Shown: piece after piece, positions 1,513-8,085 of the stretch
Position numbering within the stretch: the first letter of the stretch is position 1
Layout of the letters: the number at the start of each line of letters is the position of its first letter
Assembly (NCBI GenBank): GCA_964565125.1
Contig: CAZMCX010000016.1
Location: forward strand, 3,196-11,485
Direction of reading: 5' to 3'
Length of the DNA stretch: 8,290 nucleotides
Origin: an uncultured archaeon
GTDB taxonomy: Archaea > Iainarchaeota > Iainarchaeia > Iainarchaeales > 0-14-0-20-30-16
Notes under the pieces: model-generated
Told to the model about the DNA's origin: nothing
The model's database searches: none
Seen by the model: only the letters and a program-made list of their open reading frames with translations
Translations under genes and position numbers: made by a program

Positions 1513-4500
1513 ATGCCTAATGATAAATTTTCTGCAAGTTTTAAGGAAAGTTCTGTTGCCGAATTCTTTAAAAGAAACAGGCAAATGCTAGGTTTATACG
1601 GAAAAATTAGGTCTCTTACAACAGTAATTGCAGAATATGTTTGTAATTCATTAGATGCTTGTGAAGAAGCAGGCATACTCCCAGAAATTATAATAAAAAT
1701 ATCGCCTTTGGGCGAAGGGCACTATGAAGTCCATGTTATTGATAATGGCCCAGGAATTCCCAGAGACAAAATAGGTAAGGCTTTGGGTAAACTTTTAGCA
1801 GGAACTAAATTTCATAGACTAATACAATCACTAACTGCTGATGAATTAATGGTGTACAAACAAAATGATAAAATTCAACTAGAACCTATAGGAATATTCG
1901 TGGATAAATTTTTAGAATCGAATGAATACGAAAAAGATATTTCCAAATTAAATATTAGTGTTCCTTGTTTTGATCATATTAAATATCTATACACTTTCAG
2001 AAAAATTAAAGATGTTATAAGACATCCCAGAGAAAATGAGATTTATGAAATCAAGACAAAGTATAATAAAAAAATTAAAGTAACTGGATGTCACAGTGTA
2101 TTTTCTTTAGATAAAGGGGGTTTAATAAAAGAAACTGAAGCCAGAAACTTATCAAAAGGTGATTATGTTGCTTGCCCAAATAAACTTCCAGAAACAAAAA
2201 TAATACATAAAATTAATTGTTTAGATTACTTAGATGATAAAACTGTTGGAGAAAGATGGTTTTGCTATGGCATTGATAACAAAATAATTTCTAGTTTATT
2301 TAAAAAGGCAAAATTAACTAAAAAGAGAGACAAAACAGGCAGATTAAGAGAATATTTCCAACTCAAAGATAAAAACAAAACTGAATTATTAGTACTAAAA
2401 GAATCTATCCAATCTAATTATCTAAAAAACCATTTCTTGCCTGTTAATATAATACTAAGAATGGGTCTAAACAACAAAGTAAAAAACGGAACAATAAGAA
2501 GCTATATTCATGGAAATATTATAGATATACCTGTAGAATGGAATTTAACTCCAGAATTTGTCAGATTCTTAGGATTATATGTTGCAGAAGGCCATTCAGA
2601 CAAAAGACAAATAGGATTTACTTTTGGCAAACATGAACAGAAATATGTAACTGAAATTAAATCTTTTGCAAAATCAAAAGGCATACACACCACATTGGAA
2701 GAGAGAACTGCATCTTTAAGACTAAAAGTATTCGGGGGCATCATTTCTAATCTTATGAAAAATTGGTGCGGACATCTTGCTAAAAACAAAAAAATACCTG
2801 AATTTATTTTTTCTGTAGATTATAAATTAAGACAACATTTTTTGGATGCCCTATATCAGGGTGATGGGCACAACACAAAAAACAGAAATCAATTAATGTA
2901 TGTTACAGTAAGTGAAACGCTCGCACACCAATTGCAATATTTGTGGTTATTACAGGGTGTGATAACTGCTAAAAATGAAAAAATAAACAAAGGTATTGGA
3001 AAAACGCCATCAACAGCATATATTACCACAACTTATGGAAAAGATATAAATAAATCTAATGTCTTCTCCACAAATACGAAGTATAGAATACAGGAACACA
3101 AATTATTACCTATTCAAATACTTAATGAATTTAAACACAAAAAAGCAAGCCAAATTAATCCAACCATACACAGCATTTTTAGAGTTTTAAATTTAGGAGA
3201 TACAAAAATACAAATAAACAAATATATCACGATATTTGATAAATTATTTAAAGGTAAATCCATTACTAACATAAATAAACACAAATTTAAGCATTTATTA
3301 AATTTAGGATTCATTGACAACAATTATGAACCAACAAAACTGGTTGAATTATTAAAAAATAAATTACAAAAAATCAAAACAATAACTGAATCCAACCTAA
3401 GTTTACTAAGAATTATAGATATTAAAAAGATCACTACTGGTTTTAAGCAAGTTTATGACATTTCTGTTCCGGGGTATGAAAATTTTGTTGCAGGCAGTGG
3501 AGGAATTGCATGCCATAACACAAGAGGACAGCAAGGAATCGGAGCAAGTGGATGTATTCTATTAAGCCAAGTAACTACTGGAAAGCCTTCAAAGATAATC
3601 TCTGGAACTGGTGGCAAACCACTATATATGGAATTAGAAATAGATACTGCAAAAAACGAGCCAAAAATAAAGCTACAAAAAGAACTTGATTATGACTACA
3701 AAGGTATTGCAATAAAATCAGAATTCAAAGAAGTGAATTACCAAAACAGCAGCCAGAATGCTTTAGAATATCTTAAAAGAACTGCAATTGCAAACCCGCA
3801 TGCAACAATAAAATACACAGACCCTTTCAACAACACTTACATCTTTGAAAGGTCGAGTGGCTATATCCCTAAGACCCCAAAAGAAATAAAACCACATATA
3901 AAATGCATAACTGTGGATGGCCTAAAAACCCTTGCAAAAGATAATTCTAAAAAAACCATTGCTGGTTTATTCAAACAAGAATTTGACAGAGTTGGAGACA
4001 AGGTTATTAAAGACATAAATTCTCTTTTAGATTTCGATATTTCAAGAGTAACTATGGGCAAATCAACATGGGAAATGTTTGAAAAAGTTGTTAAAGCAAT
4101 TGATAAAACAAAAACTTTTGCCCCAAGGCTTGACACCTTGATCCCAATAGAAAAAAAATACTTAGAAGAATCACTAAGAAAAATCATAAAACCAGAATTC
4201 TTATCAGTTTTATCCAGAAAACCAACAGTATATCATGGTGGCTATCCAATACAAATAGAAGTTGCTATTGCTTATGGCGGAGATGCTGGCCAAGCCTTAG
4301 CAAACAACGAAAGAAAGTTAGAATTAATGCGTTTTGCCAATAGGGCGCCTTTGCTTTTTGACAACGGTGCCTGTGGAATCACAAAAGCAGTAAATTCAAT
4401 AGATTGGAAAAGGTATGGTTTAAGAGACATCGACAATCTTCCACTCACAATCCTAGTAAATCTCTCTTCTGTTCATATTCCATATATAAGCGCAGGAAAG

Positions 4501-4866
4501 CAAGCAATAGCGGAAGAGGAAGAAATTGTAGAAGAAATACGAAAAGCATTAATGACTGCAGCAAGATCTCTTGGTATACACCTATCCAAGAAAAAGCATT
4601 TAGAAACAAAAATGAAAAAAAGGGGAATATTTTTAAACTACGCCAAAGAAGTTGCTGAGGGTTTGCACCTACTAACCGACAGAAATAAAAAAGAGCTTAT
4701 AGACAAGCTAGAAGATATTATTACTAAGAAACTCCAAATAGAAGAGCAGAATGATAAAGAAAATCTTGAAGTTCCAGAAGAAAATCAGGAAGAAGTAGAA
4801 AAGGTTGGCAAGAAAAAAGATAAAATAACTGATTACTTCGAAGTGGATGGTGATCACGATGAGTGA
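1513..4866 (+). CDS. top6B: DNA topoisomerase VI subunit B (GHKL ATPase), intein-containing precursor (1117 aa; 553 aa after splicing)
   Basis: Bergerat-fold motifs: N box EYVCNSLDA, G1 box VIDNGPGIP and G2/ATP-lid TRGQQGIGASG. The last lies after the insert. The segment from 3520 onward is assigned as the H2TH and transducer region by family architecture (e.g. RFANRAPLLFD, VHIPYISAGKQAI); no motif was checked for H2TH. There is an acidic C-terminal tail. Confidence 0.92.
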   Translation: MPNDKFSASFKESSVAEFFKRNRQMLGLYGKIRSLTTVIAEYVCNSLDACEEAGILPEIIIKISPLGEGHYEVHVIDNGPGIPRDKIGKALGKLLAGTKFHRLIQSLTADELMVYKQNDKIQLEPIGIFVDKFLESNEYEKDISKLNISVPCFDHIKYLYTFRKIKDVIRHPRENEIYEIKTKYNKKIKVTGCHSVFSLDKGGLIKETEARNLSKGDYVACPNKLPETKIIHKINCLDYLDDKTVGERWFCYGIDNKIISSLFKKAKLTKKRDKTGRLREYFQLKDKNKTELLVLKESIQSNYLKNHFLPVNIILRMGLNNKVKNGTIRSYIHGNIIDIPVEWNLTPEFVRFLGLYVAEGHSDKRQIGFTFGKHEQKYVTEIKSFAKSKGIHTTLEERTASLRLKVFGGIISNLMKNWCGHLAKNKKIPEFIFSVDYKLRQHFLDALYQGDGHNTKNRNQLMYVTVSETLAHQLQYLWLLQGVITAKNEKINKGIGKTPSTAYITTTYGKDINKSNVFSTNTKYRIQEHKLLPIQILNEFKHKKASQINPTIHSIFRVLNLGDTKIQINKYITIFDKLFKGKSITNINKHKFKHLLNLGFIDNNYEPTKLVELLKNKLQKIKTITESNLSLLRIIDIKKITTGFKQVYDISVPGYENFVAGSGGIACHNTRGQQGIGASGCILLSQVTTGKPSKIISGTGGKPLYMELEIDTAKNEPKIKLQKELDYDYKGIAIKSEFKEVNYQNSSQNALEYLKRTAIANPHATIKYTDPFNNTYIFERSSGYIPKTPKEIKPHIKCITVDGLKTLAKDNSKKTIAGLFKQEFDRVGDKVIKDINSLLDFDISRVTMGKSTWEMFEKVVKAIDKTKTFAPRLDTLIPIEKKYLEESLRKIIKPEFLSVLSRKPTVYHGGYPIQIEVAIAYGGDAGQALANNERKLELMRFANRAPLLFDNGACGITKAVNSIDWKRYGLRDIDNLPLTILVNLSSVHIPYISAGKQAIAEEEEIVEEIRKALMTAARSLGIHLSKKKHLETKMKKRGIFLNYAKEVAEGLHLLTDRNKKELIDKLEDIITKKLQIEEQNDKENLEVPEENQEEVEKVGKKKDKITDYFEVDGDHDE
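1828..3519 (+). mobile_element. Intein (564 aa) with LAGLIDADG homing-endonuclease domain, inserted in Top6B between ...KFHRLIQ and TRGQQGIG...
   Basis: Block A is SLTADELMV (Ser1). Block B is KVTGCHSVF (TxxH). The LAGLIDADG motifs are FLGLYVAEGH (2566-2595) and FLDALYQGDGH (2839-2871). Blocks F/G are VYDISVPGYENFVAGSGGIACHN, ending in His-Asn and followed by Thr+1 (3520). Excision rejoins the conserved Top6B FHxxxQ-[S/T]RGQQGIG motif. Confidence 0.88.
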
Positions 4867-7555
4867 TACTATAAAAAAAATTGAAAAAATGGGCACAGAA
4901 ATTGCTAAACAAATTGATGACGGAAAAGAGCCTAATTATTCTATTCCGGTAAGGTCTTTGGGAAATGTTTATTATGATAAAGTTTCTAAAACAATTAAAC
5001 TTGGAGACAAAGAAAGTAAAAGGCATTTTTTAAATATTGGGCATGCAAGAAAATTTATGCAAACAATTCTTGTTGCCTCAGAAGTAAAAAATCTAATAAA
5101 GCATGGGGCAACAACCTCAATTAGGGATCTGTACTATGCCCTTAAGCACACTATTGGGGGCACAAAAGAGAACGTTTTTGAAAATCAGGCAGAATCTATT
5201 TGCCCAGACGAAACAGTCTTAGTAAGAATAGCAGGCATAATGAAAATCACAACAGTTGATGAAGTCGTAAACTATGTTAAAAAGCAGGGAAAATTAGAGA
5301 TTAATGACACTAAACATAAGGTATATTCTACAAAAGATATTTCTGTTGTAGGTTTTGACAAAAACCAAAAAATAAAAGAAAATCCAGTAAATTGTATAAT
5401 TATTCACCCTCCAAATAAAGTTAAAAAAATAACTACATCATCAGGCAGGATAGTAAAGACAACATTAGATCATAATCTTTTTACTATAAAAAACGGCGAG
5501 ATAATAAATATTACTACAAAAAATTTAAAACAAGGGGATTATATAGCAATTGCCCGAAAAATAAAAATAAAAGAAAATAAAAAAGAGATTAATTTAGTAA
5601 CTAATATAATTAATAACGCCCCCCCGGAAGTAATAAAAAAAATATATCTTAAGGGAGATAAAAAAGTAATATTTGATATTTTAGACAGCATCCCCAGAAT
5701 TAAAATAAAAAAATATCTTGAACAAAATAAACTGAAACTAAAACATAATTATGCTATGGGTAATTGGAAACATTGGCAAACAATACCTCTATCTTTGATC
5801 AAGTTTACTAATTTAGATCTAAAAAACAATTACAAAAAATTGTTTCTCTTTGCAAAAGGTGGCAAGCATAAATACAAAACTATAATTAAAAAAGATAAAA
5901 ACTTAGGATTAATCTTTGGTAGTTTACTTAGTGAGGGCTGTTTAAATATTGTAACAAGAAAAAAGAGGGAATATAGAATATCTATATGTAATAAATCTCA
6001 AAAATTTTTAAATAAATTTATTAATTCTTTGGAAAATACTTTGGGCAATTGTTCTTCAACAAAGCCCTTACCTAAAAAAGATGGCACATATAATTTAAAT
6101 GTAGGTTATGATTTACTTGCAAAAATACTAGAATATGGATTAGGCATGAATTTTTATAAATCTTGGGACAAAGAAATTCCTTATTGCTTATTAGATGCCC
6201 CAATAAATTGTGTTGATTCTTTTTTAGATAGTTTTAGACAGGGGGATGGAAGCAGGGGTCCAAGGTATGAAATAAGATACCACACTACAAGTGTTAACTT
6301 GGTAAATGGTATTTCTTTTTTATTACTTAGAAAGGGGCTGTTTTCAAATATTTACGAATACAAAAAAAGGTCATTAAATCATCATGTTGCTTATGAAATA
6401 AGAGTAGGAAATAGAGATTATTCCTGTGAATTAAGCCAAATTACTGAAAAAAATAAGTTCTCGACCAAAAATACCAAACATTCTAGTGACAGAATTCCGG
6501 GTTTAGAAAACATTATTAACCTTGCAAGAAAAGAGAAAAAAATACCACAGGAAGTTTATAAAAAAATAGACTTTTACCACTTTAAAAATAGTAGGGCAAT
6601 TAGTAGAATTATGTTAAAAAAAATATTAAAATATTTCAAAGACTCAAAATACAAGAAATTATTAGAGCTTAACCTTAACTCTAATATTTATTGGGATACA
6701 GTAAAATCCATAGAAACTATAAAAACACCCAAATACACTATGGATTTTAATGTAAAACCAATTCAAAACTTTATTGCTGGAAGAGGGCATCTGTTATTAC
6801 ATAACTCAGATCCTCTGATAGAAGACTTAGAGGCTTCTCTTGGGCTATTAAGAGAAGAACTTCACCTGACTGCATCTACAAAAGGAATAATTGCTGGGAA
6901 GATGACAGTAAAAGACGGAAAGGATACTATTGATTTGTCAAGAATGGGTTCTGGCGGTTGGGGAGTTCCATCCAATGTAGAACCTGAAAAAATTGAGATA
7001 AAAGATTTAGATGCAGAGTACATATTATTTATCGAAAAAGATGCTGTATGGAAAAGGTTTAACGAGGACCAATTCTGGAAAAAGCACAGGTGTATTATAA
7101 TCACTGGAAAAGGCCAGCCCGCAAGAGCAGAAAGAAGGCTTGTTCAGAGGTTAAACAAGGAATATAATCTTCCTGTTTATGCCCTGATGGATGCAGATCC
7201 GTGGGGAATGTATATTTATTCAGTAATAAAGCAAGGATCCATTTCTCTAAGTTATTCTGAAGAGAAATTGGCAACCCCGGATACAAAATATCTTGGACTA
7301 ACAATCTCTGATGTTGACAAGTTCAAGATCCCAAGTAATGTAACAATCAAGCTTAATATGCAAGACATAAAGAGAATAAAAGAAATGAAGGAATATCCTT
7401 GGTTTAAGAAGGACAAAGGCTGGCAGAAAGAGTTTGATTTGATGAAACAGAGAAACTACAAGCTAGAATTGGAAGCCCTAAGTAGAAAAGGGATTAGGTT
7501 CATAACTGAAGAGTATTTGCCAAGAAAGATAGAAACCAAAGACTTTTTAGGATAA
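4847..7555 (+). CDS. top6A: DNA topoisomerase VI subunit A (Spo11 family), intein-containing precursor (902 aa; 367 aa after splicing)
   Basis: The 5Y-CAP motif SIRDLYYALK carries the catalytic Tyr (Y97, 5135-5137). The spliced form reads FENQAESI-SDPLIEDLEASLGLLREELHL. Toprim motifs are LFIEKDAV (E730) and MDADPWG (DxD). The alternative start ATG 4859 is preceded by the SD-like GGTGATC (4849-4855) and may be the true start. It overlaps the top6B stop as ATGAGTGA. Confidence 0.92.
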   Translation: MVITMSDTIKKIEKMGTEIAKQIDDGKEPNYSIPVRSLGNVYYDKVSKTIKLGDKESKRHFLNIGHARKFMQTILVASEVKNLIKHGATTSIRDLYYALKHTIGGTKENVFENQAESICPDETVLVRIAGIMKITTVDEVVNYVKKQGKLEINDTKHKVYSTKDISVVGFDKNQKIKENPVNCIIIHPPNKVKKITTSSGRIVKTTLDHNLFTIKNGEIINITTKNLKQGDYIAIARKIKIKENKKEINLVTNIINNAPPEVIKKIYLKGDKKVIFDILDSIPRIKIKKYLEQNKLKLKHNYAMGNWKHWQTIPLSLIKFTNLDLKNNYKKLFLFAKGGKHKYKTIIKKDKNLGLIFGSLLSEGCLNIVTRKKREYRISICNKSQKFLNKFINSLENTLGNCSSTKPLPKKDGTYNLNVGYDLLAKILEYGLGMNFYKSWDKEIPYCLLDAPINCVDSFLDSFRQGDGSRGPRYEIRYHTTSVNLVNGISFLLLRKGLFSNIYEYKKRSLNHHVAYEIRVGNRDYSCELSQITEKNKFSTKNTKHSSDRIPGLENIINLARKEKKIPQEVYKKIDFYHFKNSRAISRIMLKKILKYFKDSKYKKLLELNLNSNIYWDTVKSIETIKTPKYTMDFNVKPIQNFIAGRGHLLLHNSDPLIEDLEASLGLLREELHLTASTKGIIAGKMTVKDGKDTIDLSRMGSGGWGVPSNVEPEKIEIKDLDAEYILFIEKDAVWKRFNEDQFWKKHRCIIITGKGQPARAERRLVQRLNKEYNLPVYALMDADPWGMYIYSVIKQGSISLSYSEEKLATPDTKYLGLTISDVDKFKIPSNVTIKLNMQDIKRIKEMKEYPWFKKDKGWQKEFDLMKQRNYKLELEALSRKGIRFITEEYLPRKIETKDFLG
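5201..6805 (+). mobile_element. Intein (535 aa) with LAGLIDADG homing-endonuclease domain, inserted in Top6A between ...NQAESI and SDPLIEDLE...
   Basis: Block A is CPDETVLV (Cys1). Block B is VKTTLDHNLF (TxxH). The LAGLIDADG motifs are LGLIFGSLLSEGC (5903-5941) and FLDSFRQGDGS (6221-6253). Blocks F/G are TMDFNVKPIQNFIAGRGHLLLHN, ending in His-Asn and followed by Ser+1 (6806). Confidence 0.88.
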
Positions 7556-7647: not shown

Positions 7648-8085
7648 TTATTTCTTTGTATATCTTTTGATTTTTAAACAGTCATTTTCCAAAAAATTTC
7701 CAAAAATTTCTATTTTTTTCTTTGCGGTTTTAAGTATTACCTTGGGGTCTATATTTAGTTTCCCCCAAGTATGTCTTCCATCCCAACCCCAAACGATTCC
7801 TTTGGCTTCAGCCCAAACAATTAAGGAAGTACACATTGGACACGGTATTTGGGTAGAATAAATCCAACAATTCTTTAGATGGTAATTCTTTTGTTTTCTA
7901 CAGATCTTTCTTACGGCATTCATTTCACCATGTGCTGTCGGATCTTTGTATTCTTCAACTGTAGAGATTGCTTTAGAAATAATTTTATCGCCCTTTACAA
8001 TAAAACAACCAGTCCTCTGTCCATCTGATTTTTTCAATGTATAAGCAATAAGTTTTCTCATTATTTTTTCGTTAGGGTGTTTCAT
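7648..8085 (-). CDS. CMP/dCMP-type (CDA superfamily) zinc-dependent nucleoside/base deaminase, COG0590-like
   Basis: The zinc and catalytic motifs are HGE (TAHGEMNAV) and PCPMC (PCxxC), with typical spacing. The 145-aa size fits free-standing CDA-fold deaminases. Substrate cannot be assigned from sequence alone. Confidence 0.8.
   Translation of the reverse strand: MKHPNEKIMRKLIAYTLKKSDGQRTGCFIVKGDKIISKAISTVEEYKDPTAHGEMNAVRKICRKQKNYHLKNCWIYSTQIPCPMCTSLIVWAEAKGIVWGWDGRHTWGKLNIDPKVILKTAKKKIEIFGNFLENDCLKIKRYTKK

Follow-up and report, generated by a model that had tools for sequence, protein, structure and literature searches.

The gene for subunit A of DNA topoisomerase VI (Top6A), a homologue of Spo11, is far longer than usual in the DNA studied here, and its tyrosine-bearing domain is split by a long insert. 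What is this insert, where exactly does it begin and end, and is it still a mobile element? The DNA, in the following called the window, is a stretch of 8,290 nucleotides from an uncultured archaeon (GenBank assembly GCA_964565125.1, contig CAZMCX010000016.1, positions 3,196 to 11,485 of the forward strand), and the source genome (G000) belongs to a DPANN lineage, the Iainarchaeota/Diapherotrites. The insert extends from nucleotide 5195 to nucleotide 6805 of the window, that is over 537 codons from Ser117 to Asn653, and Ser654 follows as the +1 residue. We consider it very probable that the insert is a canonical class-1 intein with a nested two-motif LAGLIDADG endonuclease, which splices to yield Top6A and then homes.

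The host protein is readily identified. The Top6A precursor is encoded on the plus strand by one uninterrupted open reading frame (ORF) of 902 amino acids (4847-7555, counted from the ATG at 4847). Pfam detects in it the domains Intein_splicing (E = 5.6e-22), LAGLIDADG_3 (E = 8e-8), the TOP6A Toprim domain (E = 2.4e-64) and TP6A_N (E = 1.2e-12), matches which are far beyond chance. The protein reaches 515 bits against the NCBIfam model NF003333 (cut-off 465), in two stretches, and matches PDB entry 2zbk with E = 2.3e-88. The signature of a Top6A protein is complete and consists of the tyrosine of the R-D/E-x-Y-Y motif (Tyr97), the Toprim glutamate (Glu730, 7034-7036) and the DxD motif (Asp782/Asp784, 7190-7198), the latter two being located in the C-extein. 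Tyr97 lies in the sequence RDLYY and its codon is found at 5135-5137, exactly where an earlier reading of the window, made from the letters alone (the original prediction), had placed it. It is presumably the catalytic tyrosine, as it aligns with Tyr106 of S. shibatae Top6A (2zbk), the catalytic residue of that enzyme, and, in M. jannaschii Top6A (PDB 1d3y), with residue 35 of the chain, which we take to be Tyr103 on the assumption that the construct starts at residue 69 (offset +68). The upstream gene for subunit B (Top6B) gives a similar picture: both ORFs are far above the usual length and each carries Intein_splicing and LAGLIDADG_3 between the topoisomerase VI domains.

The borders of the insert can be read from closely related genes which lack it. 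We used the spliced Top6A extein as query against 60 related genomes and found intein-free Top6A in two genomes of the same genus, G001 (extein 96% identical, open frame of 371 amino acids) and G002 (90% identical, 375 amino acids); the uninterrupted genes themselves encode about 365 amino acids. With a slash marking the insertion site, the empty-site proteins read FEDQSE/SDPLIEDLEASLG in G001 and FENQGE/SDPLIEDLEAALG in G002; the corresponding sequence of the window is FENQAE-SICPDE...LLLHN-SDPLIEDLEASLG. In the DNA the empty sites have the sequence ...CAG xxx GAA/TCA GAC CC..., to be compared with ...GCA GAA/TCT ATT TGC...CAT AAC/TCA GAT CC... in the window. Because the empty-site alleles read ...E/SDPLIEDLE, the insert must begin with Ser117 and occupy 5195-6805. 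Joining Glu116 to Ser654 gives NQAESDPLIEDLE, which aligns free of gaps with DQSESDPLIEDLE of G001, so that removal of the insert is seamless. Ser654 is conserved also in intein-free Top6A.

Three further checks do not depend on the empty-site alleles and all agree on Ser117. The intein PI-PkoII (PDB 2cw7, 537 amino acids) aligns with the insert from residue 1 to 1 (SILPEEW versus SICPDET) through to residue 537 to 537 with E = 4.7e-17. The NCBIfam model TIGR01445, which describes the N-terminal region of inteins, places its position 4 on residue 120 and therefore its position 1 on Ser117. Finally, a serine in the first position is invariant in 17 public homologues with an intein at this site, as well as in the loci L006-L009, L013 and L014 (L006 and L013 being the same contig).

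The true junction thus differs from the one first proposed. The original prediction had set the intein at 5201-6805; its end (Asn653, at 6805) stands and so does the resumption of the C-extein with SDPLIEDLE from Ser654 at 6806, only the start has to be moved to 5195. In the earlier version a Cys1 intein running from Cys119 to Asn653 would leave the product ...AESI-SDP..., and its splicing might respond to zinc or to the redox state. There is some reason behind this assignment, as cysteine is the commonest residue 1 of inteins, CPDETVLV superficially resembles a block A, and from the window alone the Ser-Ile preceding Cys119 could pass for extein. The product would, however, carry an extra SI when set against every intein-free Top6A compared (G001, G002, G005, G037, P0020-P0026 and three proteins of the PDB). 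Moreover, Cys119 is residue 3 of the intein, a position which varies between Cys, Thr, Ser, Asp and His among the homologues at this site, and both PI-PkoII and the register of TIGR01445 point to Ser117 instead. We regard a Cys1 intein as extremely improbable.

The corrected junction has consequences. The predicted nucleophile changes from cysteine to serine, and with Ser1 and Ser+1 there is no basis for a thiol-based redox switch or a metal switch; the supposed contrast with a Ser1 neighbour disappears, since both topoisomerase VI inteins of the window start with serine. The last N-extein residue, Glu116, is found 19 residues past Tyr97 and not 21 codons after it. The substrate for a homing assay changes as well, from 5171-5200 joined to 6806-6835 to 5165-5194 joined to 6806-6835.

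The precursor can now be described from end to end, all parts being on the plus strand. The N-extein (residues 1-116, 4847-5194) holds the RDLYY motif and ends with ...ENQAE. The intein opens with block A, SICPDETVLVRIA (5195-5233), in which the Ser1 nucleophile is encoded at 5195-5197 and the cysteine in position 3 at 5201-5203. Block B, GRIVKTTLDHNLFT (5444-5485), contains the sequence T-L-D-H with Thr206 (5462-5464) and His209 (5471-5473), that is Thr90 and His93 in intein numbering. The first LAGLIDADG motif, LGLIFGSLLSEG (LGLIFGSLLSEG, 5903-5938), provides the catalytic Glu363 at 5933-5935, and the second, VDSFLDSFRQGDG (VDSFLDSFRQGDG, 6212-6250), the catalytic Asp467 at 6245-6247. The intein closes with block F, PKYTMDFNVKPIQNFIAG, which reads YTMDF...NFIAG, and block G, RGHLLLHN (together 6728-6805); here are found Asp633 (6743-6745) and the terminal pair His652-Asn653 (6800-6805). 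The C-extein (residues 654-902, 6806-7552) follows with the +1 nucleophile Ser654 (6806-6808). The insert interrupts the TP6A_N profile at position 42 of 62, so that the Tyr-bearing TP6A_N or 5Y-CAP domain is bisected in the precursor as had been proposed.

These motif residues are well conserved. We aligned the intein with 10 and with 18 homologues, which are 36-74% identical to it; His93, Glu247, Asp351, Asp517 and Asn537 (intein numbering) are invariant. Both LAGLIDADG acids, Glu363 in LSEG and Asp467 in QGDG, are intact, in line with the earlier reading. The block B threonine (Thr90) is kept in at least 90% of the homologues, with one serine, and the penultimate histidine (His536) in all except P0007, which has a proline. 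We note that P0007 ends with ...MMLLPN/S and a near-identical genome copy (L006/L013, from G130) with ...MMLLHN/S; P0007 may be a true variant without the histidine of block G, or the proline may be a sequencing error.

Could the insert be a non-splicing one, the gene being a Top6A pseudogene or the product of a misassembly? The source assembly is a fragmented metagenome-assembled genome (838 kb in 131 contigs, 82% complete), which lends this view some substance. Against it stand the clean frame of 902 codons in what is the sole Top6A copy of the genome, strong purifying selection, and the recurrence of the same architecture in several assemblies and in about 19 independent protein clusters of a collection of 5.8 billion proteins. 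The chance that we are dealing with a dead gene or an artefact is in our view negligible.

The predicted fold is that of a bifunctional intein. An AlphaFold2 model of the intein, based on an alignment of 10 intein rows, has a mean predicted local distance difference test score (pLDDT) of 88.3 and a predicted template modelling score (pTM) of 0.89. A Foldseek search with this model gives PI-PkoII as best match (E = 1.1e-31, template modelling (TM) score 0.75 both ways), followed by TliVMA, PI-PfuI and PhoVMA. The Hint part of the model matches many mini-inteins; for these and PI-PkoII the root-mean-square deviation is 1.4-3 Å. The endonuclease part matches structures of I-DmoI (E of about 2.5e-4, TMt 0.6-0.7) as well as the corresponding domains of PI-PkoII and PI-PfuI; according to the model it has the pseudo-dimeric alpha-beta-beta-alpha-beta-beta-alpha core of LAGLIDADG enzymes. 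The proposal that Top6A contains a true, full-length intein equipped with a LAGLIDADG endonuclease is thus borne out by Pfam, AlphaFold2 and Foldseek alike, and homology to Hint domains is found both at the sequence and at the structure level.

What does the insert do to the unspliced protein? In the AlphaFold2 model of the whole precursor the intein and the Toprim domain are predicted with confidence and the insertion is seen between the tyrosine helix (residues 92-99) and the following helix (658-665). The split tyrosine domain, whose halves are formed by residues 87-115 and 654-676, has pLDDT values below 50, which may be explained by the alignment alone, as it is shallow and holds only intein-bearing rows. 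We therefore take the model as compatible with an inactive precursor, not as evidence of unfolding.

An inactive precursor would open the way to a conditional switch, in which splicing is held until a signal arrives and topoisomerase VI cleavage is off in the meantime, the Top6B intein perhaps acting in concert. The split of the Tyr-bearing domain, owing to which the precursor is likely inactive, the poorly predicted halves in the model and the presence of inteins in both subunits could be quoted for such a switch, and it has been argued that some inteins may be functionally important (Novikova 2016, PMC4760082). The intein has, however, no sensor feature; Ser1 and Ser+1 exclude trapping by a disulfide or by redox state, and the catalytic residues are all standard. 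Furthermore, congeneric genomes thrive without either intein, and the two inteins of the window share only 22% identity and are present or absent independently of each other (see below). A regulatory switch therefore appears very unlikely to us.

We suggest instead that the intein splices in the standard way, in these steps. The Hint domain would fold within the 902-residue precursor. Ser117 would then carry out an N-O acyl shift at its bond with Glu116, aided by Thr206 and His209 of block B, and Ser654 would attack the resulting ester to form the branched intermediate. Cyclisation of Asn653, aided by His652 and by Asp633 of block F, would release the intein, and a final O-N shift would leave a native Glu-Ser bond. 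The expected product is a Top6A of about 365 amino acids which reads ...NQAE-SDPLIEDLE... in register with the intein-free orthologues; the predicted peptide across the spliced junction is ENQAESDPLIEDLEASLG. The freed intein is probably a single-chain LAGLIDADG endonuclease in which Glu363 and Asp467 bind metal. It could cut intein-less Top6A alleles around GAA/TCAGAYCC, and recombinational repair would then copy the intein into the cut allele.

How widespread is the intein? Top6A is present in 208 of the 214 species-level genomes of the phylum. Among these 208 the present site is occupied in the source genome, G006, G130 and G132, and probably in G124, where the contig is truncated; the counts come from genome searches, and a locus scan based on two peptide patterns gave only five loci. 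The Top6A of G006, a genome of the same order, has 901 amino acids. A further locus with an intein at this site (L008) belongs to Candidatus Aenigmatarchaeota. The allele family as a whole keeps an intein length of 535-548 amino acids, and the presence or absence of the intein varies within the genera g1 and g42. A second insertion site in Top6A, immediately ahead of the TDGD motif of the Toprim domain, is used in at least six genomes (G016, G027, G044, G046, G050 and G052).

We compared the history of the intein with that of its host in quick trees of 18-22 rows, some with long branches. In the extein tree the protein of the window pairs with the intein-free G001 (99%) and P0002 with the intein-free G005 (99%), and in the intein tree the intein of the window is sister to that of P0002 (100%). 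The path between the window and P0002 measures 0.38 in the intein tree and 0.37 in the extein tree; for P0003 the paths, with branches summed by hand, are about 1.09 and 0.44. This hints that the inteins of the window and of P0002 share a younger ancestor than their hosts do. The comparison suggests horizontal transfer, though it falls short of proof.

Is the endonuclease still under selection? As reference we took the nearest allele, the P0002 gene in locus L011 (intein 74% and extein 78% identical). The ratio of nonsynonymous to synonymous substitution rates (dN/dS) amounts to 0.095 over the whole intein, to 0.10 over its middle part with the endonuclease and DNA-binding regions, and to 0.07-0.08 over the Hint parts, values which are rough and only a qualitative sign of constraint, because dS is saturated (proportion of synonymous differences 0.64-0.80) and cannot be calculated at all for the C-extein. 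The endonuclease region is as constrained as the splicing domain, and both are under purifying selection. In base composition the Top6A intein, with a GC content of 0.27, differs from its exteins (0.33 and 0.37), and likewise the Top6B intein (0.28) from its own (0.35); both inteins are thus 6-10 GC points below their exteins.

A sober alternative is that the intein splices while the endonuclease no longer cuts. The element would then be a resident which is inherited vertically and is either heading for decay or loss or keeps the endonuclease domain for folding or another role. Many full-length inteins are known to carry inactive endonucleases, and we know of no demonstrated route in DPANN archaea for the cell-to-cell DNA exchange which homing requires. 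To the saturation of dS further points have to be added which weigh against our reading of an element that splices and homes. The intein tree broadly tracks the host tree, the nearest intein is only 74% identical, and nothing thus points directly to a transfer in the very recent past; a long vertical descent with several precise losses fits the distribution as well. Splicing chemistry, endonuclease activity and homing are, furthermore, inferred from sequence and models.

A dead endonuclease is in turn difficult to reconcile with other observations. The two catalytic acids are found without exception in 18 diverged homologues, the endonuclease shows a dN/dS as low as the splicing domain, deletions are absent throughout the allele family, the intein is present in some members of two genera and absent from others, and the path lengths given above hint at a younger intein ancestor. 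On balance we consider a splicing intein with an endonuclease that no longer cuts rather unlikely, and lean, with some reserve, towards an endonuclease that is currently active. That it is active and the element is also now homing among closely related populations of Iainarchaeota/Diapherotrites is a narrower proposal, which we put forward tentatively and would not bet on.

The neighbouring Top6B intein (1828-3519) helps to place the Top6A intein in context. The two inteins of topoisomerase VI occur in all four combinations: both are present in the source genome and both are missing in G001, G002 has only the Top6B intein (Top6B of 1118 amino acids with Intein_splicing and LAGLIDADG_3) and L011 only the Top6A intein. 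The uninterrupted Top6B frame has 563 amino acids in G001 and 577 in the genome of P0002. The Top6A and the Top6B inteins vary independently. A recent paralogous origin of the window's two inteins was considered and can be ruled out, as they are only 22% identical (E = 2e-8). In G006, a member of the Diapherotrites, the Top6B ORF (L003, 3530-8443, minus strand) encodes 1638 amino acids with two Intein_splicing and two LAGLIDADG_3 stretches, and the topoisomerase VI genes of this genome hold three inteins in total, one in Top6A and two in Top6B.

The window carries on the plus strand a gene for a RIO-type kinase (238-990), a gene for a KH-domain protein (987-1508), the Top6B gene (1513-4866, by ORF list and Pfam) and the Top6A gene. 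Top6A has in-frame ATG codons at 4847 and 4859, both of which are kept in G001 (MVITMSD); the public gene call begins at the second and yields 898 amino acids. Counted from the first ATG, Top6A shares 20 nt with the end of Top6B, including the stop codon of the latter (TGA, 4864-4866), an arrangement suggestive of translational coupling. Convergent with the end of Top6A is an ORF of 145 amino acids on the minus strand (7648-8085) with HxE and CxxC motifs; judging by these motifs it may encode a deaminase of the CMP/dCMP type. In the source genome Intein_splicing matches occur in about nine open frames on the contigs C1, C13, C16, C17, C39, C53 and C108, one of these frames, of 1714 amino acids on C1, having several such matches; this intein load is unusually high for a genome of only 838 kb. 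Among the intein-free Top6A homologues, five come from high-GC organisms (P0021, P0022, P0024, P0025 and P0031); their ORFs, which look frameshifted or mis-called, continue into the C-terminal part of Top6B, a beta-lactamase-like domain or long tails rich in Arg and Pro.

An intein is a known kind of element. Here it is found in a host protein for which we found no published case, at a site within the Tyr-bearing domain of this Spo11 homologue. The literature searched for intein together with Top6A, Spo11 or DPANN describes no Top6A intein, and the main text of Novikova 2016 (PMC4760082) has no Top6A entry. The claim that the allele may be new thus holds for the literature searched; it does not hold for the public protein collections, where the clusters mentioned above already contain it and some proteins with a Top6A intein have been automatically annotated by JGI as "DNA topoisomerase VI subunit A/intein/homing endonuclease". 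The significance of the finding is modest; the Tyr-bearing domain of Top6A joins the insertion sites of inteins. The independent presence and absence of two topoisomerase VI inteins in near-identical host genes makes them a marker of gene flow for a DPANN lineage. If homing is current, the four intein combinations would testify to DNA exchange and homologous recombination in recent times among tiny host-dependent archaea. If the endonuclease is active, it would be a candidate for a rare-cutting meganuclease of new specificity, directed at a conserved Top6A/Spo11 sequence.

Among the known inteins the best match both in sequence and in structure is PI-PkoII, the Pol-2 intein of the Thermococcus kodakarensis DNA polymerase (2cw7 and 2cw8). 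Both inteins have 537 amino acids, start with Ser1 in similar blocks A (SILPEE versus SICPDE) and end with HN. As in PI-PkoII and related polymerase inteins of the Thermococcales, the Hint domain encloses a LAGLIDADG endonuclease with two motifs, and further parts serve to bind DNA. In the structural alignment the two are nevertheless identical at only about 19% of the positions, and PI-PkoII is inserted at another site in a family B polymerase. Its host is a hyperthermophile, whereas the Top6A intein resides in a mesophile-like, AT-rich DPANN genome. TliVMA and PhoVMA (7qss and 7qst) and PI-PfuI (1dq3) share the bifunctional architecture of intein and LAGLIDADG endonuclease (Foldseek E between 8e-24 and 2e-17) but are Cys1 inteins of V-ATPase or ribonucleotide reductase hosts with 13-17% identity.

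Inteins in DNA topoisomerases as such are not new, as they have been published for Top6B, TopA, GyrA/B and reverse gyrase (Novikova 2016, PMC4760082; Soucy 2014, PMC4071816), those in Top6B being reported from Haloarchaea and other archaea (PMC4071816, PMC4760082). The Top6B inteins, including the neighbour in the window, belong to the same enzyme complex as the Top6A intein, and the neighbour likewise starts with Ser1 and carries a LAGLIDADG endonuclease; they differ in the subunit and the site, and the identity to the window's own Top6B intein is low, as given above. Closest with respect to the host are other public Top6A alleles, located before the Toprim glutamate (P0020), before the TDGD motif (P0023, G027 and G046) and inside the DxD motif (P0026-P0030, one member being named Thermoprotei). 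Like the present intein they sit at catalytic motifs of the same protein, mostly with LAGLIDADG domains. In contrast to it, they occupy sites in the Toprim domain and their intein sequences are unrelated or distant, the BLAST coverage from our query extending over the exteins only.

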